Shown piece after piece: positions 6,581 through 32,000 of a stretch of DNA of 32,000 bases. Every line of letters begins with the position of its first letter. Within the stretch, counting starts at the first letter, position 1. The DNA lies in the NCBI GenBank assembly GCA_965197525.1, contig OZ240211.1, forward strand, positions 506,251-538,250. The letters run 5' to 3'. The notes beneath the pieces are model-generated. The model was not told the DNA's origin. It saw only the letters and a list, made by a program, of their open reading frames with translations, and did not search any database. The stretch is from Nitrosopumilus sp. (lineage in GTDB: Archaea > Thermoproteota > Nitrososphaeria > Nitrososphaerales > Nitrosopumilaceae). Position numbers and translations under genes: made by a program.

Positions 6581-6649
6581 ATCTCTTGACCACGTAATAT
6601 TGAATATAATAAAATTGGGAAAGGTTATCTTATATAAATTGCGTTTTTT

Positions 6650-6908
6650 GGTTCTGTAACATCTTCGAGACCCTTAGTGATGTTATCGCTGGCCTAAATA
6701 TACCATTCAAACTATCCTCTAGGTTTAGGGATAGTCGAGATGACATAGATGAAGCGAAGTCTGGCATTTTTGAGCCAGCGATGTTGGAATCTTGCAGATC
6801 AGTAATCTAGATAGTCGATATGTCAAAGTCGAGTGATAGAGAGAAAACAATTTGTTAATAATACAACAAAATTTCTTTGTTGATAGGTGTCTATAACCAG
6901 ACAGAACC
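6650..6908 (+). mobile_element. Miniature (MITE-like) TnpB-element derivative with no protein coding, retaining the left terminus and the right-end RNA block
   Basis: The left terminus is GGTTCTGTAACATCTTCGAGA (6650-6670) and the right terminus is ...CTATAACCAGACAGAACC (ends 6908). The interior 6716-6908 aligns to the 3' end and right end of the tnpB copies at 23255-23410 and 30529-30731. Confidence 0.6.
6716..6908 (+). ncRNA. Putative omega-RNA (right-end RNA) scaffold, orphan copy
   Basis: It starts at the conserved CCTCTAGGTTTAGGGATAGT block and ends at CAGAACC. It contains the hairpins CTGGC-N8-GCCAG and TTTGTTAATAATACAACAAA. There is no intact ORF on the + strand. Confidence 0.4.
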
Positions 6909-7019
6909 GTCATCCCAGTTTTGAAGACTATTTTGCGTTAGTTGATCCACATCGTTTTCTGCTTTATCTAGCGTTTTGTTATCATCAGGTAGTCGCTGTG
7001 ATTCTGTAAATAAGAGATG

Positions 7020-9805: not shown

Positions 9806-10233
9806 ACGATCAAGATAACAGTTGTATCTTATGAAGTTTTGAATTTAGTAGGCAAACTATACGTAGAGTAATTAACTGATACATTGAGGTACTCGATAAT
9901 GAACAGGTTTAAAATATGACACCATATCAACACGGATACTCAGAGAGATCATCTTCGTTGTCCTGTTGCTCGTCTAAAATTCGAAGATGGTATAGTATCG
10001 ATTTGTTGCCAGATGCCATAGCAAATTATGATAGAGAGGGTATAAAAACATGTTGTATGTAGCCATACCCTCCCCCACTTACATTATTAGATATAGATAC
10101 CCCCTCCCCCTCCCCTCCAAATACCCGCCCATTTATCTGTGCATCTATCCATATTCCAGTACATCATCGGGTTCTGTTGGGTTATCGAGATCTAAAACAT
10201 AGAAATAAATACTTTTAATCATTACCATAATCA

Positions 10234-10488
10234 TTGAACAGCACGAACACGCAATATCCAGGATGCGGAAAGAAACTCCAAGAGGATATTATGCAACAAC
10301 ATCATAAATTATCGTGTACTAATTGTGGATTGTTCATTGATATGAACGCATCTCACAAGCTGTCCCCTAGGTTTAGGGATAGTAGAGATGACATACATGA
10401 AGCGCAGTCTGGCACTTTTGAGTCAGCAATGTCGGAACCCAGCACACCGTCGGTAATCCGAATAGTCGATATGTCAAAGTCAGGTTAT
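10234..10488 (+). pseudogene. tnpB: TnpB C-terminal remnant (zinc ribbon and RuvC-III decayed)
   Basis: NSTNTQYPGCGKKLQED...SCTNCGLFIDMNASHKLSPRFRDSR aligns to PRNTSTQCPQCGKRLQED...CNNCGLFMDRDIIAAMNISRKLPPRFRGSR of the intact copy. The first Cys is changed to Tyr and the RDIIAA segment is deleted. Confidence 0.75.
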
Positions 10489-10547
10489 ATGGAGAGGAAC
10501 TTTGTTAATACACAACAAATTTCAGGTCTCGATAACCCAACAGAACC
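10364..10547 (+). ncRNA. Putative omega-RNA scaffold, orphan copy
   Basis: There is high nucleotide identity to 23255-23410, starting at CCCCTAGGTTTAGGGATAGTAGAG. It has the hairpins CTGGC-N8-GTCAG and TTTGTTAATACACAACAAA and ends at CAGAACC. Confidence 0.45.
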
Positions 10548-10550
10548 CTA

Positions 10551-11306
10551 CTATGGAAAAGAGTTCAGGGCAGATACATAGCTTGCAAATCGGTGATTTT
10601 TTGGCTTGACCTTTTTGTCATGGTATTTAACGGCGGATTTTTTGTTTACTGCACCATAAAGACCAAGTGGCGTATATCTAGGCAAGTTGTCGTGCGCCCA
10701 GCCAAGAACTTCATCATTTGGTGCATAATAGTTTACAGTTTTTGTTTTGATGATTGATTTGAATATTTTAGAGTATTGCAGGGATGAGGGTACATCATGG
10801 GTAATTGATGCACCAAAAAAATATACGCTGTTAATAATTCCAGTGTTTGTTTTCTTTCTTGCAAGATACGACAAAGTACTGAGGATTACCTGGGATCCAA
10901 GAGAGTGACCAAGCAGACGAATTCTAGTGCCAGGACTTGCGAGTTTAAAATCTTCAATGAATGCTCCAAGATTTTTACCGTTTTTCTTGGCAATAACTTG
11001 ACCTACTGCCAAAGCATGTTTTTGGTGTTTTGTGCTGTACGCACCTACGGTGTTTGAGTCGTAGCTGAATCCGATGACTGGGTGCATATAGCCTAATCTA
11101 CGTAGTCGAGTTTTGGCCAAGAGAGCTTTGGCAATGGCGCCTGCATTGTTGTTTCTAAAACCATGAATCATTATTACGAGTTCTTTTGAGCCGACTAATC
11201 CCTTAAAACCATTTTTTGGGTAAATACGATACAAGTCATTACGTAGGGCAGTGCCGTCAGATAGGTCATAGCATCCTCTGGTTGTGACTCGTAAAATGGG
11301 TTTCAT
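10551..11306 (-). CDS. Alpha/beta-fold serine hydrolase (DUF900/PGAP1-like)
   Basis: 251 aa with IMIHGF early in the sequence and the nucleophile elbow GHSLGSQV. It has a 4-nt ATGA overlap with the upstream metG stop. Confidence 0.7.
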   Translation of the reverse strand: MKPILRVTTRGCYDLSDGTALRNDLYRIYPKNGFKGLVGSKELVIMIHGFRNNNAGAIAKALLAKTRLRRLGYMHPVIGFSYDSNTVGAYSTKHQKHALAVGQVIAKKNGKNLGAFIEDFKLASPGTRIRLLGHSLGSQVILSTLSYLARKKTNTGIINSVYFFGASITHDVPSSLQYSKIFKSIIKTKTVNYYAPNDEVLGWAHDNLPRYTPLGLYGAVNKKSAVKYHDKKVKPKNHRFASYVSALNSFP

Positions 11307-17486: not shown

Positions 17487-19004
17487 CTATATCAGAAACA
17501 AAAATACCGAGGCAGGTATAATTACGTAATCAGTTTTAGATTCCAAATCGAGTTTTGACAAAACAATCCCGGTTTTTTTCACATCATTACGAAAGCTTGT
17601 TAATCCAGATAATTCCTTGGCGTTAATTTTTTGTCTAAACTTTACTTCGATTGGAATTTCAATATCTCCAACTGAAAGCACGAAATCTACTTCCTTGTTG
17701 TTTTTACTCTTCCAGTAAAAGACATGGTTATGGTATTGAAAAATATGCTTTTTTGTACTCAGAGCAAAAGCTAATCTGATTAGGTGGTCGGCTACTATGC
17801 CTTCCACCATCTTTCCCTTATTTGCCTCGTCTTGTACGTACTGTAAGCTAAGATCAAAACTGTTCATTTGATCTGCCCATCCATTAAAAATATGGAGTAA
17901 AAATGGATCTCGGAAATAAAACTTCCGATCATTTTGGATTCTAGGCATCTTGTTTTTGGTACCGTATAGATACACGATTGATAAGACAAATAGATCATCT
18001 AATGTGTATGCATAGTCTGCCACAGTGTTTGGACTACCTATTGCAGATTCACGGGAGAGATTGGTCCAAGAGGTATGGCTAGTCAAACCATTAATTATTG
18101 TTCTTCCAAATTGCCCAAGTAATGTTTCATTTTTAGATTGGCGACTCCATTCGCCGGTAATGCCATTAAGATATTCATAGTAGATATTTTCGTCTAATAT
18201 GCCGGTCGTGATCTTTTTATTAATTATGTAAGGAGTTCCTCCAGTGAGCATATATTCATTTAACAAATCATTTAATTCATTTTGGTACGCATTAATTTTG
18301 TCAATATTTGAATGTATACTGAGATTAGTAAGATCCAGAAGAATGTTTTTCTTGTTTTGAGTACAATGTAATTTTAGATCTGAATGGAGTGATTTTAGTT
18401 CACTATTTTGCATGCAGACAAACTCAGAAAATTTCATAGGTAGCAAAATCTTATCATAGGTATCTGTTATTGTTCCCCTTCTGTTGGGTAGTCTTTCAGA
18501 TGCATTCTTCAATCCAATTGCTTGTGAACCCGTAGCTACTAGTGTAACATTGGGGATTTTATGCTGATCCACTAACCATTTGATACTTTTCTGCCAATCA
18601 ATTACTGAAGTTGCTTCATCTAAAAAGATATACCGTCTATCGCTTTCTCGCAATTTTGGTGTTAATTTAAAATAAATTTCTATAACATCTACAATATCTT
18701 GTTTTGTATCATCAATGTCCAAAGAGTAATAGCATATCTGCCACGGCGATATTCCTTTGTCTAAAAAATCTTTGATCTGTAACATCAGTAATGTGGTTTT
18801 GCCAATTTGTCTAGGTCCACGTAGCGTATAGACTACGGTGTTAGTTGTACTGAAATCCCACTTGATCTTATCTTTCAGTTCTGGAACATATTTCATCATA
18901 GATTTATGCCACTCGTAGATTTTTTGGTTATCGTTAATCTTGCTTGCATTCTTCCACCAAGGATTCATATCCCTTATTCGGTATTCGCTGACCATACAGG
19001 ACAT
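17487..19004 (-). CDS. AAA+ ATPase of the COG1373 type (AAA domain plus DUF4143-like C-terminus)
   Basis: It has Walker A GPRQIGKTT, Walker B YIFLDEAT and NPWW near the N-terminus. I trimmed the start from the ORF-track GTG (19040, inside the tandem repeat) to the ATG at 19004. The ATG at 18995 is equally possible. Confidence 0.8.
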   Translation of the reverse strand: MSCMVSEYRIRDMNPWWKNASKINDNQKIYEWHKSMMKYVPELKDKIKWDFSTTNTVVYTLRGPRQIGKTTLLMLQIKDFLDKGISPWQICYYSLDIDDTKQDIVDVIEIYFKLTPKLRESDRRYIFLDEATSVIDWQKSIKWLVDQHKIPNVTLVATGSQAIGLKNASERLPNRRGTITDTYDKILLPMKFSEFVCMQNSELKSLHSDLKLHCTQNKKNILLDLTNLSIHSNIDKINAYQNELNDLLNEYMLTGGTPYIINKKITTGILDENIYYEYLNGITGEWSRQSKNETLLGQFGRTIINGLTSHTSWTNLSRESAIGSPNTVADYAYTLDDLFVLSIVYLYGTKNKMPRIQNDRKFYFRDPFLLHIFNGWADQMNSFDLSLQYVQDEANKGKMVEGIVADHLIRLAFALSTKKHIFQYHNHVFYWKSKNNKEVDFVLSVGDIEIPIEVKFRQKINAKELSGLTSFRNDVKKTGIVLSKLDLESKTDYVIIPASVFLFLI

Positions 19005-19180
19005 ACTGAACGGTTCTTTATATATTACAGTCGGATCCACTGAACGGTTCTTTATATATTACAGTCGGATCCACTGAACGGTTCTTTATATATTACAGTC
19101 GGATCCACTGAACGGTTCTTTATATATTACAGTCGGATCCACTGAACGGTTCTTTATATATTACAGTCGGATCCACTGAA
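19005..19180. repeat. Perfect 34-bp tandem repeat, 5 copies plus a 6-nt partial
   Basis: The unit ACTGAACGGTTCTTTATATATTACAGTCGGATCC begins at 19005, 19039, 19073, 19107 and 19141, with a partial at 19175. Each unit contains TTTATATA, which matches the archaeal TATA box. Confidence 0.95.
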
Positions 19181-19324
19181 TTATTTGCCAACTTTATGAT
19201 TTCCAAGGTTTGTGATCAGAGATCATGATATCTACCGTCTCGCTAGCCTGCACAAGTATTTGGCTATTCTGAATTTAATTACTTTGAGGGTAAATTGTAA
19301 TTAGTAAAGAGATTACCAACTAGA

Positions 19325-22057: not shown

Positions 22058-22194
22058 ACGTATTCTTCAGAGAACCCCGATAATATCTGCTACGCTAGCA
22101 AGTAATACGGTTTTATTTGAAAAGGTTTTGTGAAGTTATCGGGAGTTATATGTCATCCCTAAAATGTATAAACCTCTGAACCGTAAGATATTCG

Positions 22195-23388
22195 TTGAGA
22201 GCGATAAAGTCAATATCACAGAAATATGCGCAAAACTCTGATCTAATGGATATGATGGCTATATTCACAAAGATGGTCAATCATTGCATCAAGATAGGGT
22301 TGAAAGAAGACACTCACAATATGAAGAGGTTGTCCATGTTATGTTATCATGAATTACGTAACTATGGCATTTTATCAACATACAAGATATGTGCAATATC
22401 AAGAGCTGCAGGCATATTATCAAACAGAAAACAATCAATCAAACGAGGTGTCAGAATAAGAGACCCAATAGTCAAAAATCCCTTTATGACAAACTGTTAC
22501 GGCATAAAACACAACGGTGCACTACTAACAATCCCATACAAGAAACATAACCCAATCAGCATTTTACTCAACGATCACACCCAAAAAATCCTATCTGATC
22601 CCGCCTTGACGGTGCGCTCGTTTTCATTGACTGCTCTCAACATCAGTCTTTGTGTTTCAAAAACAGTACAAGAGATAGAGTGCACCAAGAAGGTGGGAAT
22701 AGACAGAAACCTAAGAAATGTGACGTGTGGGGACGAGGAAGAGGTGACAGTCTACAAGACAAACAAACTGTTATCCATAAAGGAGAACACAATACACGCC
22801 AGGGCAGGCTTCCACAGAAATGATCGCAGGAAGAAAAATCAGTTCTACAAGGAAAAACAGAGAAGACTGACTAACAGAGCAAAGCAGTACATCCACAGAA
22901 TCTCAAAGGATATAGTAGACAACGCAGTCAAAAACAAGACTGCAATCGTCATGGAAAACCTGAAAGGAATAAGAAAATTGTACCGAAAAGGAAACACTCA
23001 AGGTAACAAGTACAGACGTAGATTGAACGGGTGGCAATTCTACGAGTTACAACGCCAAATAGAATACAAAGCCCAATGGGTCGGACTACCTCCAGTCGAG
23101 ACAGTAGACCCAAGAAACACGAGCACGCAGTGTCCACAATGCGGAAAGAGACTCCAAGAGGACATGCAACAACATCGTAAATTGTCGTGTAATAATTGCG
23201 GTTTGTTTATGGACAGGGACATCATCGCTGCCATGAACATATCACGCAAACTGCCCCCTAGGTTTAGGGGTAGTAGAGGTGACATAGATGAAGCACAGTC
23301 CGGCACTTTTGAGCAGGCGATGACGGAACCCAGCACACCATTGGTAATCCGAATAGTCGATATGTCAAAGTCGAGTTATAGGGGTTAA
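22195..23388 (+). CDS. tnpB: TnpB (IS605 OrfB-family) RNA-guided endonuclease, apparently intact
   Basis: 397 aa with RuvC-I VGIDRN (Asp ~170), RuvC-II VMENLKG (Glu ~254), zinc ribbon CPQCG...CNNCG and RuvC-III MDRDIIAAMNI. It has a TTG start; the paralog uses ATG at the equivalent codon. Confidence 0.92.
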   Translation: MRAIKSISQKYAQNSDLMDMMAIFTKMVNHCIKIGLKEDTHNMKRLSMLCYHELRNYGILSTYKICAISRAAGILSNRKQSIKRGVRIRDPIVKNPFMTNCYGIKHNGALLTIPYKKHNPISILLNDHTQKILSDPALTVRSFSLTALNISLCVSKTVQEIECTKKVGIDRNLRNVTCGDEEEVTVYKTNKLLSIKENTIHARAGFHRNDRRKKNQFYKEKQRRLTNRAKQYIHRISKDIVDNAVKNKTAIVMENLKGIRKLYRKGNTQGNKYRRRLNGWQFYELQRQIEYKAQWVGLPPVETVDPRNTSTQCPQCGKRLQEDMQQHRKLSCNNCGLFMDRDIIAAMNISRKLPPRFRGSRGDIDEAQSGTFEQAMTEPSTPLVIRIVDMSKSSYRG

Positions 23389-23410
23389 CTCCCGATAACT
23401 TCACAGAACC
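23255..23410 (+). ncRNA. Putative omega-RNA (reRNA) scaffold overlapping the tnpB 3' end and the right end
   Basis: This is the nucleotide block most conserved among all four copies, including the non-coding ones. A terminal hairpin GTTATAGGGGTTAACTCCCGATAAC lies just before TTCACAGAACC. The expected guide is the flank 23411-23430. Confidence 0.55.
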
Positions 23411-23438
23411 AAAAGAATAGTAAAAAAGATGAAGATTA

Positions 23439-24554
23439 TTGGGAATTCCTGAAAAGATCAAAGCCATACAAGATGAAATGGCAAAGACGCAGATCAACAA
23501 GGCAACAGAGCACCACATAGGATTACTCAAAGCAAAGATTGCCAAGCTCAAAAGAGAACAAGAAGCAGATGCTGTCAAAAAATCAGGCATGAAGCAAGAT
23601 GGATTTGATGTAAGGCGTAGCGGAGATGCGACAGTGGTATTCATAGGACTGCCAAGTGTCGGAAAATCTACACTGTTAAACAAGATGACTGGTGCTAACT
23701 CAACCATAGGGGCTTTCCAATTTACAACACTGACTGTTGTTCCGGGGATGATGGAGTACAGGGGCGCAAAGATCCAAGTATTGGATCTGCCAGGGATCAT
23801 AAAAGGTGCATCAACAGGCAAAGGATTAGGAAAGAGAATATTATCAGTTGCAAGATCAGCTGACCTAGTACTGTTGATGTTAGATGTATTTCAACCATAT
23901 CACGAGGACGTGTTAATAAATGAATTAGGCAATATTGGAATAAGATTAAACCGCCTACCACCGAACATCACAATTGAAAAAGCATCAATGGGAGGAATTG
24001 CAGTTGCGCAACAAGTAAAATTAACAAAGATCACAGAGAAACATCTCAAAGACATATTACATCTGTACGGATTGGTTAGCGCACGCGTGGTAATAAGAGA
24101 AGATATAACATCTGAACAATTGGCAGATCATATTGCAGGAAATATTAGTTATTCAAAAGCTATCACGATACTAAACAAGATTGATCTAGTGGATAAAGTA
24201 TTTCTCAATAATTTAAAAACAAAGATAAAATCAGACGTAGTAGAGGTGTCTGCAAATGCAGATATCAACATTGAACTACTCAAAGAAAAGATATATCAGA
24301 AATTAAAATTTATTAGAATATATATGAGACCCAAGGGCGGAGAGACTGATTTTAAAGAACCGTTAATTGCAAGAGAAGGTGACACAGTTGAAGAAATTTG
24401 TAACAAACTTCATCGCAGGTTAAGAAGAGAGTTCAGATACGGTTTAGTTTGGGGCAAGAGTGTAAAGTTTGGAGGACAGCGAGTGGGATTAAGTCACATT
24501 TTAGTCGATGAGGATGTGCTCACCATAATAAAAAAGCGTGGAAGTACTGTATAA
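23439..24554 (+). CDS. DRG-family (Obg-like) GTP-binding protein with C-terminal TGS domain
   Basis: 371 aa with G1 GLPSVGKST, G3 DLPGII and G4 NKID. It has the N-terminal MGIPEKIKAIQDEMAKTQ typical of DRG proteins and a TTG start. Confidence 0.92.
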   Translation: MGIPEKIKAIQDEMAKTQINKATEHHIGLLKAKIAKLKREQEADAVKKSGMKQDGFDVRRSGDATVVFIGLPSVGKSTLLNKMTGANSTIGAFQFTTLTVVPGMMEYRGAKIQVLDLPGIIKGASTGKGLGKRILSVARSADLVLLMLDVFQPYHEDVLINELGNIGIRLNRLPPNITIEKASMGGIAVAQQVKLTKITEKHLKDILHLYGLVSARVVIREDITSEQLADHIAGNISYSKAITILNKIDLVDKVFLNNLKTKIKSDVVEVSANADINIELLKEKIYQKLKFIRIYMRPKGGETDFKEPLIAREGDTVEEICNKLHRRLRREFRYGLVWGKSVKFGGQRVGLSHILVDEDVLTIIKKRGSTV

Positions 24555-24759
24555 CTAGAAAAAATCAAGCGTATGCTGTGCTGCGTGTGCCTGTATGACA
24601 CCATAACGAGAGTCTTATTCATAATTGAAAGCTCCATGTGTAGAAAAATTGTAGAAAAAATACACGATTAAAGGAGAAATTTACTTTATAATTTATAATC
24701 AAATTGTGTAAACTTTTTTAGTGTAGTAATTCAAAAATGGGAAAAAGCTCAACATTGCA

Positions 24760-25320
24760 ATGGCTATAAGAAAAACTTCTACAGCTAAACGTAGAACAGC
24801 TAAGAAAACTACTGCAAGAAAGACATCTACAAAGAAAGCAGCTCCTAGACGAAGTGCAGCAAAGAAAGCAGCTCCTAGACGAAGTGCAGCAAAGAAAGCA
24901 GCTCCTAGACGAAGTGCAGCAAAGAAAGCAGCTCCTAGACGAAGTGCAGCAAAGAAAGCAGCTCCTAGACGAAGTGCAGCAAAGAAAGCAGCTCCTAGAC
25001 GAAGTGCAGCAAAGAAAGCAGCTCCTAGACGAAGTGCAGCAAAGAAAGCAGCTCCTAGACGAAGTGCAGCAAAGAAAGCAGCTCCTAGACGAAGTGCAGC
25101 AAAGAAAGCAGCTCCTAGACGAAGTGCAGCAAAGAAAGCAGCTCCTAGACGAAGTGCAGCAAAGAAAGCAGCTCCTAGACGAAGTGCAGCAAAGAAAGCA
25201 GCTCCTAGACGAAGTGCAGCAAAGAAAGCAGCTCCTAGACGAAGTGCAGCAAAGAAAGCAGCTCCTAGACGAAGTGCAGCAAAGAAAGCAGCTCCTAGAC
25301 GAAGTGCAAAGAGACGATAA
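24760..25320 (+). CDS. Highly basic Ala/Lys/Arg/Pro repeat protein (histone H1-tail-like), 16 x AAPRRSAAKK
   Basis: It starts with ATG, and the non-repeat N-terminus MAIRKTSTAKRRTAKKTTARKTSTKK has the same composition as the repeats. The stop comes directly after a degenerate last repeat. Other frames of the repeat are open only because the unit has no stop codon. Confidence 0.6.
   Translation: MAIRKTSTAKRRTAKKTTARKTSTKKAAPRRSAAKKAAPRRSAAKKAAPRRSAAKKAAPRRSAAKKAAPRRSAAKKAAPRRSAAKKAAPRRSAAKKAAPRRSAAKKAAPRRSAAKKAAPRRSAAKKAAPRRSAAKKAAPRRSAAKKAAPRRSAAKKAAPRRSAAKKAAPRRSAAKKAAPRRSAKRR
24838..25308. repeat. Perfect 30-bp tandem repeat, 15 identical units plus a 21-nt partial
   Basis: The unit GCAGCTCCTAGACGAAGTGCAGCAAAGAAA recurs with no mismatch from 24838 to 25287, and the next unit diverges after 21 nt. 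Confidence 0.98.
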
Positions 25321-25549
25321 ATTCGTTAACACAATTAACAATCATCGGACAAACGACGGATTGTTTTCTATTTTTCTAAATGACTCAGTATTAACTATAA
25401 AGTATTAAACTCGATTTTAGTTTTTTAAGATTTGTAATCATAAAATTTTAAAAAATTATTAATTATCAAACATATGACAGAATCAATAATTATAGAGATA
25501 TTGCATATTGCATATTTTTGATGAATAGTTTATTGTTTGAAGAAGCACG

Positions 25550-27229
25550 TCAATAAAGATAACTCATTAATTTAATCTCTTCTTCAGTGCTAATGATGTT
25601 TTTAGCTGTTAGAACTTCTAACAGATCCTTAAAAAGTGCTTTTTGCTCACTAGACATTCCACCGGTAGGACCCTTATCACCTGGTAATCCCGGAGGACCT
25701 CGTGGGCCTGGAGGACCTAATGGGCCTTGCTCACCTGGAGGACCTTGCTCACCTAGAGGGCCTAATGGGCCTTTTGAACCTCGCTCTCCTTGAGGACCCT
25801 GAATTCCTTGTGGGCCTTGTGGGCCTTTCTCACCTGCAGGACCGGTAGGACCTCGCTCTCCTTGGGAACCTTGTGGGCCTTGTGGGCCTTTGGCGCCTAC
25901 AGGACCTAGTGGGCCGGTAGAGCCTCGCTCTCCAATCTGTCCGACACGTCCCTTCTCACCTCGCTCACCCTGTATTCCTGGAACGCCTGTCATTCCTTTC
26001 TCACCTGGAGGACCTTGTGGGCCTTGTGGACCAGTCTCACCTTGTGGACCATCAACGCCCTTGTTTCCTTTCTCACCGGGGGGACCAGTTGGACCTGCTA
26101 GTCCTTTTGGACCTTTGTCGCCTTGTGGACCCGTAACACCTGTTAATCCTTTTGAGCCTGTGGCGCCCTGCGGGCCTTGTAGACCCTTCTCACCTGGAGA
26201 ACCTTTGTCACCAGTTGGGCCTTTCTCACCCGTAGCACCTTGTGGGCCAAGTAAACCTTGTGGACCTTTGTCGCCTTTGATTCCAACAGGACCTGTTAAT
26301 CCTTTTGAACCCACAGGACCGGGGGAACCTTGCGGACCTTTGTCGCCCGGAGAACCGAGTTGGCCTGTAGGGCCTTTTGAACCCTTATCCCCCATATGAC
26401 CATGAGGACCTTTGTCACCTATAGGGCCTTTGTCACCAGTTGGACCCTTGGTGCCCACAGGACCTGCAGGACCTTGCAGTCCTTTGTCACCCTGAATTCC
26501 AGGAAAGCCAGTTGGGCCCTTTTCACCAGCAGGTCCAGGTGGACCGGTAAGTCCTTTGTCACCAGGCATGCCCTGTGGGCCTTTGTCACCCTTATCGCCA
26601 ATAACCCCGCGTAAACCAAGAGGGCCTTTGTCGCCAAGAGGACCTTTGTCACCTGGAGGACCACGCTCACCTTGCACACCTGAAGGTCCAGATGGACCTT
26701 TGTCACCTTTAGAACCCATACGTCCAGAGGATCCAGTAGAAACGGCAATATCAGATGAGCCTTCAGGCGTGGATGGTTTTTGTCGTCCAGATGAGGGTTT
26801 GGTAATAGTAGAAGAGGAGGAGGAGGAAGAGGAAGATGCAGGAGGAACAATAGACATGCCAGATTTAACATCATGTGTAGCAGAAGCATCTGCATCCTTG
26901 CTGGATTTATCAGTTTTTAGAGCCTTCTTTTTCAAAGAGACCTCAAATACAGTATGTGCAGAAGAGAACGAATCATATGCGACAATCCAAATTTTATCTA
27001 GTGCGTCAATTGACGGAGGCAGTGGATTTAGTGCAGACCCCAGCGTTTCAAAAAACACGCCATCGCGTACGCGTAGATGAAAGTGGTCTTTCCAGAGATA
27101 TTTGAACTGTTTTGACATTATGGAATCATCAGTAGGCTTGGATGTTGTGATAGCAATTTCAGTCTCATAGACTCCAGGCTGGGTTATTGGCGCAGGTCCG
27201 CTTACCTCTAACTTTGATGCAGATGACAC
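25550..27229 (-). CDS. Collagen-like triple-helix repeat protein
   Basis: 559 aa. Residues 169-522 (nt 25664-26725) are about 118 uninterrupted Gly-X-Y triplets (GDKGPQG, GERGPPG and similar). The 168-aa N-terminal non-collagen domain ends in a Ser9 linker, and there is a 37-aa C-terminal helical tail. It has a GTG start and no in-frame upstream ATG. Confidence 0.85.
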
Positions 27230-27345: not shown

Positions 27346-28467
27346 GTGAAGAAACTATTTGGTAAAAAATCAAAGGAAGAAAAAGAACCAAAAGAGAAGA
27401 TAATTCCAAAAGAGAGAAGTTTGATAGATTCAGACTATAACCGCAAGAGATTGTTCAAAAAGGGAATTAACCTGATGGCAGATGAAAAGTTAGAAGAAGC
27501 AGTAGATGTATTTCAGCAAGCACTACGAATTGAGCCAGACAATATTGAAACACTGATGAAGTTAGGATATGCGAGATTTCATCTAGATGATCATTCAGAG
27601 GCATTGCGGATTTATGATAGAATTTTAGAAATCGATGTGGCCAATCCCGAAGCATGGAATCTAAAAGGACTAGTACATTATGAACAAAAAAAATATGCTA
27701 AAGCATTAGATGCGGTAGAAAAAGCAATAGAGTCAGATCCAACATACGGAATGGCATGGTATAATCATGCATGTTTCTTGTCACTGTTAAATCAGGTTCC
27801 AGAATCACTTGAGTCATTAAAACGTTCTATTGAGATAGATGTAAAAAATGCAAGAAGATCAATACGTGATAAAGATTTTGTAAATGTGCGAATTGAAGAA
27901 GGGTTCAAAAGAATACAAGAAGTGGTGGTTTTGGAATCAATTAAACAAGGATATCACACACTTGGTGCAATTGTATGGCCAACATTTCTTGATAAAGCAG
28001 ACGCAGAAAACGCATTAAAAAAATTATTAGAGAAAGGATTAATTGTACAAAATGAAAAACGTGAGGGTTTAAGCAGGATTCCAGTTTATGATCTTGCAGA
28101 CAACGTAGCAGAAAAAATAGGCAAGGAGAAAAAAGGATTATTTGGAATTACCAGAAAAACATTACCCAAACCAATAAAACACTTAAAAGAACTAGGACAG
28201 GCAATTCAAGCGGTCAAAGAAGCCATAGAAGATGAAGATCTAGAAAAGACCACAAAGTGCTTTGATGTATTCATAGATCCTGCAAAGTCAGGTGAGCAGA
28301 TGATTGAGATTTTCTTTGATGAACACAGAGAGATAAGATTGTGGAAGATTAGGTTAAAGGACAGAGGTGTAGACTATCTAATCGATAACAAAGAAAAGAT
28401 GTTGACTCTATTTGATAACATAGAAGGTACTGTAACTAAAAAACTTCGTAACGAGATATCATCCTAG
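27346..28467 (+). CDS. TPR-repeat protein with an uncharacterised C-terminal domain
   Basis: 373 aa with a Lys/Glu-rich N-terminus and about four TPR units (aa 45-180, e.g. AWNLKGLVHYEQKKYAKALDAVEKAIESDP). It has a GTG start and is divergent from the collagen-like gene. Confidence 0.8.
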   Translation: MKKLFGKKSKEEKEPKEKIIPKERSLIDSDYNRKRLFKKGINLMADEKLEEAVDVFQQALRIEPDNIETLMKLGYARFHLDDHSEALRIYDRILEIDVANPEAWNLKGLVHYEQKKYAKALDAVEKAIESDPTYGMAWYNHACFLSLLNQVPESLESLKRSIEIDVKNARRSIRDKDFVNVRIEEGFKRIQEVVVLESIKQGYHTLGAIVWPTFLDKADAENALKKLLEKGLIVQNEKREGLSRIPVYDLADNVAEKIGKEKKGLFGITRKTLPKPIKHLKELGQAIQAVKEAIEDEDLEKTTKCFDVFIDPAKSGEQMIEIFFDEHREIRLWKIRLKDRGVDYLIDNKEKMLTLFDNIEGTVTKKLRNEISS

Positions 28468-30528: not shown

Positions 30529-30731
30529 GGTTCTGTCTAATCATAGTGAGATAAAATCTAAACTCCGAAAAAAAGTTTTGTTGTAATATTAACAAAGTGT
30601 CTTTTTCCCATCAGTTGACTTTGACATATCGACTATTTGGATTACCGGTGTACAGGGTTCCAACATCGCTAACTCAAAAACATTAGACTTCGCTTCACTT
30701 ATGCCAACTCTACTATCCCTAAACCTAGGGG
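30529..30731 (-). ncRNA. Putative omega-RNA scaffold of the frameshifted element
   Basis: The reverse complement starts CCCCTAGGTTTAGGGATAGTAGAG and ends GATTAGACAGAACC. It has the compensated hairpin CTAAT-N8-GTTAG and the TTTGTTAATATTACAACAAA hairpin. Confidence 0.45.
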
Positions 30732-31792
30732 ACAGTTTGTGAGGTATATTTATAGCAGCAATAACGTCTCTGTCCATAAACAACCCACAATTATTGCACG
30801 ACTTTTTACGATGGTGTTGCAAGTCCTCTTGGAGTTTCTTTCCGCATCTTGGACATTGCGAGCTCGTGTTTTTTGGGTCTACAAATTTTACTGGAAGCCC
30901 TACCCATTGGGCTTTGTATTGTATTTGTCTTTGAAATTCAAAGAATTGCCATCCGTTTAATCTACGTCTGTACTTGTTACCTTGACCATTGCCTTTCTTG
31001 TATAATTTTCTTATTCCTTTTAGATCTTCTAGAATAATCATGGTTTTGTTTTTGACTGCTCGTTCTACAATATCTTTTGAGATTCTATGTATGTATTGTT
31101 TGGTTCTTTGAGACATTCTTCTCTGCTTTATCTTCCAGAACTGATCTTTCTTTCTACGGTCATTTCTATGAAATCCAGCTCTAGCGTGTATTGTATTTTC
31201 TTTAATTGATAGTAATTTATTTGTCTTGTATACTATAACTTTTTTCTCATTCCCACAAGTGACATTTCTAAGATTTCTGTCTAATTCCTACCGGTACATT
31301 AGTACATTCTATTTCTTCAACTTTTTTTGAAACACAAAAACTGATACTTTTTTCATTCATAATAAATGATCTTATATTTAAATCAGGATTAGATAGTATT
31401 TTTTGAGTGTGATCATTTAATAATATGTTTATGGGGTTTCTATTTTTGTATGGTATTGTCATTAAACTACCATTATGTTTGATACCATAACAATTTGTAA
31501 TAAATAACTTTTTTACAACTAGGTCTCTTACTGTAACACCACGCTTTATTGACTGTTTTCTGTTAGATAGTATGCCAACAGCACGTGATATTGCATTTAT
31601 TTTATATGAACCTAAAACATCATAGTCTCTAAATTCATGATAACAAAGTGGAGACAACTGTTTCAAACTATGTACGTCTTCTCTTAACCCTATTCTAATG
31701 GAACGATTTACCATTTTTATGAATATCTCCATCAACTCTTTTAGATCAGAATTTGGTGTATGTTTCTGTGTTATTGATTTTAATGCCTTCAT
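30589..31792 (-). pseudogene. tnpB: tnpB disrupted by a single-nucleotide insertion just before the RuvC-I Asp codon
   Basis: The N-terminal ORF (31268-31792) and the C-terminal frame (open from 31281 to 30589) both align to the intact copy. GGAATTAGACAG here corresponds to GGAATAGACAG in the intact copy, so there is one extra base at plus-strand 31283/31284. Downstream E, Zn-ribbon and DRD motifs are intact. Confidence 0.85.
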
Positions 31793-32000
31793 ACTACTAG
31801 AACATGTTTTATTTTTTTAATAAAGGTACTTTTTTTGAAATTATTTTTATTCTTTGCCACTTGATAATCCAATAAAACCATTATTTGTTATTGTAAATCT
31901 AGATAAAAATTTATCTCCCTATAAATAGACAGAACACTGTATAGGTAAGTATTAATTGTTTATGCTACAAGAATACAATATGCAAAAGGCGACCATAGCA

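Follow-up and report, generated by a model that had tools for sequence, protein, structure and literature searches.

The window analysed here is a 32,000-nt stretch of a Nitrosopumilus contig (OZ240211.1) in which a repeated element occurs four times, and this text concerns the smallest of the four copies, at 6650–6908 on the plus strand. In agreement with the initial annotation, this mini copy is 259 bp long, its first bases are GGTTCTGT and its last bases ACAGAACC, and the string CCTCTAGGTTTAGGGATAGT starts at 6716. Repeat search and alignment placed three further homologous copies in the window, at 10170–10547 (+), 22124–23410 (+) and 30529–31937 (−). On sequence comparison, the mini copy is an internally deleted, protein-less derivative of a TnpB-only transposon of Nitrosopumilus-like archaea, and we infer that the 3′ module it has retained is the omega (guide) RNA of TnpB. 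The identity of the element and its general mechanism, namely a TnpB transposon derivative with an omega RNA, form one joint claim that we hold with high confidence. Of the original element, some 27 bp of the left end survive, followed by 35 nt that once coded for part of TnpB and by the 3′ module; the parts of the copy and its immediate flanks are as follows.

6639..6641 (+): TTG at the candidate position of a target-adjacent motif (TAM), directly 5′ of the 8 nt preceding the left end; assigned by position only, there being no duplication
6650..6676 (+): left end, made of the terminal inverted repeat GGTTCTGTAACATCTTCGAGACC and a few bases; deletion junction at about 6676/6677
6677..6710 (+): remnant of tnpB codons just past the third RuvC aspartate motif ((R)DVIAGLNIPFK), from alignment and translations
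6711..6735 (+): helix 1 of the putative omega RNA, an 8-bp hairpin ACTATCCT / GGGATAGT with 5′ arm 6711–6718, conserved loop CTAGGTTTA at 6719–6727 and 3′ arm 6728–6735, from covariation and the covariance model
6741..6825 (+): core domain of the putative omega RNA, from covariation and a covariance-model match at 6709–6829
6741..6747 and 6819..6825 (+): helix 2, long-range, TGACATA pairing with TATGTCA and enclosing helices 3 and 4
6761..6765 and 6774..6778 (+): helix 3, CTGGC / GCCAG
6784..6788 and 6806..6810 (+): helix 4, TTGGA / TCTAG
6828..6902 (+): terminal helix 5, with a 5′ arm directly after helix 2 and a 3′ arm formed by the inner right inverted repeat
6883..6908 (+): right end, terminal inverted repeat ending in ...GGTGTCTATAACCAGACAGAACC; the final ~8 nt (ACAGAACC) are left unpaired in the predicted fold
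6909..6928 (+): predicted guide segment GTCATCCCAGTTTTGAAGAC, in flanking DNA, placed from TnpB biology (PMC10055086)

Homology of the mini copy to tnpB picks up at about 6676–6679, as seen in the alignment and in the repeat arms 6676–6878 / 30569–30771, and its translation DVIAGLNIPFKLSSRFRDS parallels RDVIAAINIPHKLSPRFRDS of the minus-strand copy at 30529–31937. The initial annotation had described some 65 bp of left end followed by a jump to 6716; instead, the left end is about 27 bp and a length of about 67 bp fits the copy at 10170–10547, in its segment 10170–10236. The mini copy has neither a start codon nor an open reading frame (ORF), and an in-frame TAG is found at 6808–6810. Its left repeat is degenerate or chimeric, since only the first 8 nt and scattered positions match its own right end. 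The 3′ arm of helix 2 sits within a 20-mer that is invariant across all four window copies, and the apical loop of helix 5 carries an insertion of ~45 nt (~6841–6886) with its own TTTGTT/AACAAA hairpin.

The other three copies of the window identify the gene from which the mini copy derives.

22124..23410 (+): copy A, a full-length element of 1287 bp; tnpB at 22195–23388 (397 aa), putative omega RNA core at 23248–23371
30529..31937 (−): copy B, a full-length element of 1409 bp; tnpB in two ORFs (31792–31268 and 31116–30589), putative omega RNA core at 30618–30738
10170..10547 (+): the other gene-less copy, of 378 bp; its 67-bp left end is followed by tnpB sequence starting at the zinc-finger codons, which leads into the putative core (10357–10480) and the right end

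The protein of A matches the Pfam domain Cas12f1-like_TNB (PF07282, 7e-21), and the solved structures that it matches best are those of Cas12f and TnpB. It possesses the TNB/zinc-ribbon domain together with an intact split RuvC D-E-D triad; residues D170, E254 and D342, as well as the cysteines C313, C316, C332 and C335, are invariant in 18 homologues (down to 50% identity). Protein homologues of the repeat are annotated as TnpB of Nitrosopumilus, Nitrosarchaeum or Thaumarchaeota. Copy B is flanked by a perfect 8-bp duplication, CCTATACA, and the split of its tnpB falls at the first RuvC motif. As the gene is divided there into two ORFs, A has the only intact nuclease gene in the window, and B would, like the mini copies, depend on a TnpB from elsewhere. 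All four copies keep an intact RNA core, while only one of the four encodes an intact nuclease. The limits of the 378-bp copy are 10170–10547 rather than 10162–10555 as originally given; its left-end junction lies at ~10236, it has kept ~120 nt more of the sequence upstream of the RNA than the 259-bp copy, and an 18-nt internal deletion in its tnpB remnant ends ~21 nt before helix 1. Both the TnpB coding of the long copies and the RNA as its omega RNA had escaped the initial annotation. An insertion of ~30–60 nt in the loop of helix 5 is common to three of the four copies (6841–6886, 10493–10525 and, on the minus strand, 30555–30605); it comprises a TTTGTT/AACAAA hairpin followed by T-runs (T7 in B).

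A protein-profile scan of metagenomes provided 80 further family loci (43–65% amino-acid identity). The structured RNA spans about 160–200 nt, covers the last ~45 codons of tnpB and finishes at the right terminus; its onset is ~135 nt before the stop codon and it runs to ACAGAACC, in sense orientation, in A and B and likewise at about 80 loci of the family. In an alignment made with MAFFT only, of 50 3′ regions extending from the third RuvC aspartate to the right end, RNAalifold recovered the 8-bp hairpin with loop CTAGGTTTA and the 7-bp long-range helix, with double changes in 14 of 15 pairs. The partners in this alignment pair in 97.3% of cases, against 67.8% for shuffled and ~40% for slid partners. 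Compensatory changes are found across the family in all 8 pairs of helix 1, every one of which is intact in the mini copy, and a nearer clade adds the inner helices 3 and 4. A covariance model (R1) was built from 18 sequences, the mini copy being excluded, and gave 52 matches representing 49 distinct sequences. In the resulting alignment of these 49, the 31 consensus pairs are 96% paired and 23 of them show double changes, values that none of 500 shuffles reached. This alignment is fitted to the model, therefore the MAFFT-only counts are the independent evidence. The model trained without the mini copy gives it 124.1 bits (E 8e-23) at 6709–6829, a match that spans the whole model, contains canonical pairs only, is far beyond chance and bears out the homology to the three other copies that had been proposed; A, B and the 378-bp copy score 132.8, 129.8 and 135.6 bits, respectively. 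Single-sequence folding z-scores were weak (−1.1 to −2.3 on either strand) and were not used as evidence.

It is worth noticing that G-U is the commonest state at several pairs (for example in 36 and 38 of the 49 sequences). It is therefore the tnpB-sense strand that folds, and it does so as RNA rather than as DNA. As for helix 5, the minimum-free-energy fold was computed for 27 family members, and in 22 of them the upstream arm pairs with 8 or more of the 14 inverted-repeat bases. The helix persists though the repeat sequence differs between clades, the partner arm covarying with the clade-specific repeat, and it leaves ACAGAACC unpaired at the 3′ end. The sequence right after ACAGAACC is unrelated between copies. 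The omega RNA reading follows from this arrangement: the covariation-supported structure overlaps the 3′ tail of tnpB in sense orientation and ends at the right terminus, so that the flank would be read as the guide (PMC10055086). No Rfam family matches the RNA at gathering or permissive thresholds.

The 5′ edge of the RNA can be seen at the synonymous sites of the gene. The profile of 4-fold degenerate sites, computed over 2455 pairs of family members below 70% amino-acid identity, shows an identity of 0.25–0.40 over most of the gene and of 0.25–0.34 over the ...CNNCGLFMDRDIIAAMNIS codons; it climbs to 0.49–0.58 where the sliding interval starts at 23236–23251, and to 0.70–0.77 near the stop codon. 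Helix 1 starts at 23250 in A, at 6711 in the mini copy, at ~10359 in the 378-bp copy and at 30736 in B. Position 6716, which had been put forward as the 5′ edge of a functional RNA, thus lies inside the 5′ arm of helix 1 (6711–6718) and is right to within ~5 nt; this boundary is visible only in the family-wide synonymous-site constraint and in the covariation. Since the stretch just upstream of helix 1 shows baseline synonymous variation, it argues against a conserved promoter there, and we find it simpler to suppose that the RNA 5′ end would be made by processing of a longer transcript. Processing of the omega RNA from a longer transcript has been described for other TnpBs. The TATA-like TAAATATA at 6694–6701 was considered as a promoter of the RNA and rejected, because transcription would start inside the loop of helix 1 and because the motif corresponds to conserved Asn-Ile codons. 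A 4-fold profile restricted to close paralogues rises already from ~23035, but it comprises 7 non-independent sequences with possible gene conversion and was disregarded in favour of the family-wide profile. Over the zinc-finger codons CPQCGKRLQED (23100–23190), well before the RNA, the latter shows another, smaller rise (0.43–0.50 versus ~0.3), after which the identity returns to baseline; the 378-bp copy retains the equivalent of this zinc-finger stretch.

Family members are bounded by terminal inverted repeats of ~25 bp, GGTTCTGT...ACAGAACC, in which 19–26 of 26 positions match; the termini GGTTCTG...CAGAACC recur across all family loci, the inner repeat sequence is clade-specific, and the four window copies carry four different inverted repeats. 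Perfect 8-bp direct repeats flank 19 unique elements in addition to B, among ~40 unique copies with pairable ends. A 19-mer common to the four window copies occurs 13 times in one other genome, the Nitrosopumilus metagenome-assembled genome OZ245003.1; eleven of these occurrences belong to full-length elements of 81–94% identity (nine of ~1291 bp and two with nested insertions) and the other two are cut by the edge of the locus. TnpB elements are 92–94% nucleotide-identical between the window genome and OZ245003.1, while that genome offers no counterpart at 90% amino-acid identity to the housekeeping proteins of the window, which suggests that the element has spread horizontally between Nitrosopumilus lineages. 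Two copies in OZ245003.1 (L006:5308–6598 and L009:3399–4689) have exchanged their flanks, the left 8-mer of one being the right 8-mer of the other (TAGAAACT and TTATGTTA), and a chromosomal inversion by recombination between them is therefore indicated. Two TnpB elements of the same genome are interrupted by nested elements of 1.1–1.3 kb (L011:4744–5850 and L014:2882–4150), whose proteins of 339 and 369 aa look, judged by eye from their motifs, like DDE transposases of IS630/Tc1 type. These IS630-like genes were considered as the partner transposase and rejected, being unrelated insertions with other ends; the remaining DDE gene that we met, a DDE_Tnp_1 in L095, has other ends as well. In viral contigs, a degenerate pattern of the core gave 54 matches, about the number estimated to be expected by chance, and none of them fits the covariance model.

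A candidate TAM was sought in the flanks of the 19 elements with perfect duplications. On the tnpB-sense strand, the 3 nt directly 5′ of the left duplication are T in 14 of 19, T in 19 of 19 and a purine (R) in 19 of 19, and the ten bases beyond the right duplication show no motif. With a T frequency of ~0.31, we calculate a probability of ~2e-10 for T in all 19 elements at position −2. We propose TTR as the candidate TAM, since an asymmetric motif is unexpected from a transposase acting on symmetrical ends; it is also located where a TAM must be if the guide corresponds to the duplicated 8 bp plus the right flank. An empty site of A was recovered in a Logan contig of a related strain (L104:1–200, compared with window positions 22100–22135 and 23400–23440), reading ...TTTG AAAG GAATAGC... 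against ...TTTG AAAA [A] AAAA GAATAGT... in the window, where [A] stands for the element. A has therefore inserted there, and TTG directly precedes the sequence that matches the flank past its right end. The scaffold of the family is thus followed on its 3′ side by a variable putative guide that matches a TAM-adjacent unoccupied site; for the mini copy this holds by position only. At the site of the 378-bp copy (L102 and L103 compared with window positions 10150–10560, flanks ~94% identical), the related strain has an unrelated 180 nt between the flanks. This copy is thus tied to a loss of ancestral DNA, either by an adjacent deletion or by recombination between two insertions, and this rearrangement accounts for its missing duplication.

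Taken together with what is established for TnpB, these features would outline the following mechanism. The 3′ bases of the omega RNA would be transcribed from the DNA of the right flank (6909 onward in the mini copy) and act as the guide. TnpB from an intact copy, e.g. 22195–23388, would load the RNAs of B and of both mini copies in trans, and the complex would cut DNA carrying TTR followed by a sequence that matches the guide, which is the layout of an unoccupied insertion site. Recombinational repair of such a cut would restore the element there, in other words homing or retention, which has been demonstrated experimentally for IS605-type TnpB (PMC10055086). Movement itself would be performed in trans by a separate staggered-cut transposase, making the mini copy a double hitch-hiker, with both proteins supplied from elsewhere.

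Whether the RNA of the mini copy is still in use is at best an even bet. None of the changes specific to the mini copy at paired positions disrupts pairing, one C-G to U-A double change (columns 84/108) among them, and all 31 consensus pairs are intact despite a core that is 14–19% diverged from every other copy seen. In helix 4, the 3′ arm has changed from TCCAA to TCTAG; the pairs are kept as G-U and U-G, but the former tnpB reading frame thereby acquires its TAG. What is constrained is therefore the RNA and not the peptide, and because such a stop is hard to reconcile with a working gene, these two pairing-safe changes suggest, from a very small sample, structure-preserving change after the gene was lost. 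All of this speaks against an inert relic, a deletion product in decay with an RNA that has ceased to be made or used and with pairs intact only through youth or through divergence that mostly came before the deletion; we nevertheless give the relic a chance only a little below even, for a number of observations weigh on its side. The flanks of the mini copy (left CGTTTTTT, right GTCATCCC) show no target duplication and its inverted repeats match poorly, so that it may no longer be mobilisable and its guide no longer matches an empty site that can be reconstructed. A left end cut down to 27 bp leaves it without a promoter of its own, and none that is conserved is evident just upstream of helix 1, where protein-constrained ...AAMNIS... 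codons show baseline synonymous variation; moreover, archaeal transcription could stop at the T-runs of the helix 5 insertion and never reach the guide. Where its RNA would begin, how it would be processed and which guide it would carry are all predictions from the sequence. Just two gene-less copies are seen, each unique and the pair 84% alike, with no others in a further 472 kb of related loci and no sign of amplification like that of MITEs, miniature transposable elements with inverted repeats, in the window or in those loci, and the other one stands at a rearranged site from which 180 nt of ancestral DNA are missing. The RNA module amounts to ~13% of the element, thus a random deletion would spare it ~87% of the time and two deletions that keep the RNA are weak evidence of selection. 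At the level of the family, the duplication of A deduced from its empty site is 4 bp (AAAA/AAAG) and not 8 bp, which is unexplained, and among matching ends up to 8 kb apart, none of the loci yielded an element that combines GGTTCTG ends with different cargo and could supply the partner transposase.

The conserved structure might also be conserved for reasons other than an RNA. It could be a DNA feature of the right end, such as the single-strand hairpins or repeated transposase binding sites of IS200/IS605: helix 5 joins the right inverted repeat to an internal copy of the left-end repeat, which could be a second transposase site, and subterminal DNA hairpins are used by IS605-type elements (PMC4810608). 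Yet the structure takes in ~125 nt outside the repeat, including a long-range helix and a multi-branched core, the G-U pairs would be C-A mismatches on the complementary strand, and the inverted repeats and duplications point to a double-strand staggered-cut mechanism rather than to the single-strand mechanism of IS605, which makes this explanation very improbable. Still less credence goes to the idea that selection maintains a small ORF or the C-terminal peptide of TnpB instead of a nucleic-acid structure. The tail is indeed conserved at the protein level in distant homologues (...RFxxxRG...IRIVDxSKS), but the 4-fold degenerate sites are themselves constrained, and in the RNA region only; paired columns change on both sides along with the residues (e.g. 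LSPRFRDS versus GWARFTHP), and the gene-less copies have no start codon, with every pair kept in the mini copy in spite of its in-frame stop. The initial annotation, for its part, had seen a promoter-plus-RNA unit with a recurring deletion edge at CCTAGGTTTAGGG and two subfamilies, each with one long and one mini member. Apart from placing the RNA edge almost correctly, this version, which we consider improbable, can appeal to an indel state and the helix 5 loop insertion that the mini copy has in common with B, and the strings said to be shared with 30529–31937 are present. B is nevertheless not the closest copy: core identity of the mini copy is highest, at 86.0%, with a copy from another genome, followed by the other mini copy (84.3%), B (82.6%) and A (81.0%), and these values of 81–86% to all copies, the four different inverted repeats and an insertion common to three copies contradict two subfamilies. 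No junction falls at the motif either, the deletions lying at ~6676 (35 nt upstream of the RNA) in the mini copy and at ~10236, further upstream, in the 378-bp copy, besides its 18-nt internal deletion. Conservation does not begin at 6716 in the other three copies, given that A and B are alignable over the whole ORF at 72–80% and the 378-bp copy extends well upstream, and the promoter half of the proposal meets the baseline synonymous variation before helix 1. A guide RNA of TnpB, whether or not it is still used, is the reading that we retain for the module.

Regarding the surroundings of the mini copy, its left end is situated upstream of a MoxR-DUF58-VWA operon on the minus strand, at a distance of 69 nt from the start codon. 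The AT-rich spacer (6581–6649) holds TTATATAAAT at 6630–6639, which might drive transcription into the mini copy; alternatively, the mini copy may affect the promoter of the operon. The orthologous site was searched in relatives, where the neighbouring MoxR gene has no relative at 90% identity, and through KARI, whose relatives at up to 91% identity carry different neighbours, including a different TnpB family. In L095–L101, with a KARI 91% identical to that of the window, the gene is flanked on both sides by this other family, which has no GGTTCTG ends and two copies of which are 96% alike; an IS5-like DDE_Tnp_1 element with unrelated ends is present there in some contigs and absent from others. 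The window belongs to a cellular genome; its housekeeping genes include EF-2, three aminoacyl-tRNA synthetases, KARI, SAH hydrolase and the MoxR-DUF58-VWA operon, and a tRNA search found no tRNA genes. Tandem-repeat arrays occupy 18971–19214 (6 copies of a 34-nt unit, 4 of them identical) and 24695–25398 (a 30-nt unit over ~700 bp). A 559-aa collagen triple-helix repeat protein (25550–27229, −; Pfam Collagen, 1e-59) adjoins a TPR protein (27346–28467, +); eukaryote-like repeat proteins are typical of sponge-associated symbionts. A giant-virus or Fanzor origin, prompted by the collagen repeats and the low GC, was ruled out by the archaeal housekeeping genes and the Nitrosopumilales homologues.

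Among known systems, the family resembles the TnpB-omega RNA systems of IS200/IS605 (ISDra2, Geobacillus ISGst) at the level of TnpB and RNA but not at its ends. The likeness includes a nuclease of ~400 aa with RuvC D-E-D and a zinc finger, a scaffold that overlaps the 3′ end of tnpB and stops at the right terminus, a guide taken from the flank, and a short T-rich motif on the left side, where a TAM is expected. The ends differ in their ~25-bp inverted repeats and 8-bp duplications, in the position of the duplicated 8 bp between the candidate TAM and the left end, and in the absence of any associated Y1 or serine TnpA, and the RNA matches no Rfam family. IS200/IS605 and IS607 elements have neither inverted repeats nor target duplications (PMC4810608, PMC13565253), thus the family falls outside the tnpB-only IS1341 group of IS200/IS605. 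TnpBs with inverted terminal repeats have been reported on DDE-linked branches, together with solo TnpBs having the same ends (Altae-Tran et al. 2023, PMC10691335). Our family shares with the former the symmetrical inverted ends around tnpB and a tnpB that ends within 250 bp of the right terminus, and with the latter a presumed mobilization in trans. Unlike the DDE-linked elements, it showed no DDE transposase with matching ends, either in the window or in the loci (ends up to 8 kb apart). The DDE partners IS630, ISL2 and IS1031 make duplications of 2–3 bp, not 8 bp.

Protein-less derivatives have precedents as well. Palindrome-associated transposable elements (PATEs), which derive from IS605 elements, "often encode omega RNAs" used in trans (Meers et al., PMC10055086; Haloquadratum PATEs, PMC3119063). 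The mini copy is comparable to them as a gene-less derivative by internal deletion, which keeps its ends, often a guide RNA in the case of PATEs, and needs both TnpB and transposase in trans. However, PATEs have subterminal palindromes without inverted repeats or duplications and can be numerous, whereas the mini copy resembles MITEs in having inverted repeats, and only two gene-less copies, both unique, are seen. Like MITEs, it is short (259 bp), non-coding, bounded by terminal inverted repeats, degenerate here beyond 8 nt, and derived from a longer element; unlike typical MITEs, it has no target duplication, is not amplified into many similar copies, has poorly matched ends and keeps a large functional RNA module. 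Omega RNAs, inverted-repeat TnpB elements and protein-less omega RNA derivatives are already known, and from such a system a gene-less mini copy is the sort of by-product to be expected; it is the architecture of the family that is unusual. What is new is the combination of these traits in an abundant thaumarchaeal family, which may match one of the six DDE-linked branches (PMC10691335), a right inverted repeat that also forms part of the RNA's last helix, the geometry of TTR and duplication, and an RNA model absent from Rfam.

Perhaps, and we offer this as a rather unlikely extension, the Nitrosopumilales possess an old and large TnpB/omega RNA family riding on a staggered-cut transposon with inverted repeats and an 8-bp duplication, whose transposase is never in cis, whose right repeat serves as the last helix of the guide RNA and whose TTR TAM lies just outside the duplicated target. 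Homing would then serve elements of cut-and-paste type too, and the gene-less and frameshifted copies would be guide-only parasites of a few intact TnpB genes, or would be on their way to becoming guide RNAs used by the host. If this is true, it runs against the view that ties RNA-guided homing to the scarless excision of IS605 and IS607. A 2026 review (PMC13565253) leaves open the question of whether transposons whose excision is not scarless benefit from homing, and the architecture of the family is a natural test of it. For annotation, a 259-bp unannotated repeat is given an identity, along with a covariation-supported model of an archaeal omega RNA; for genome editing, a compact archaeal TnpB of ~397 aa becomes available with a defined scaffold and a simple predicted TAM. 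Finally, the window is a small, clear case of guide RNAs outliving their nuclease gene.

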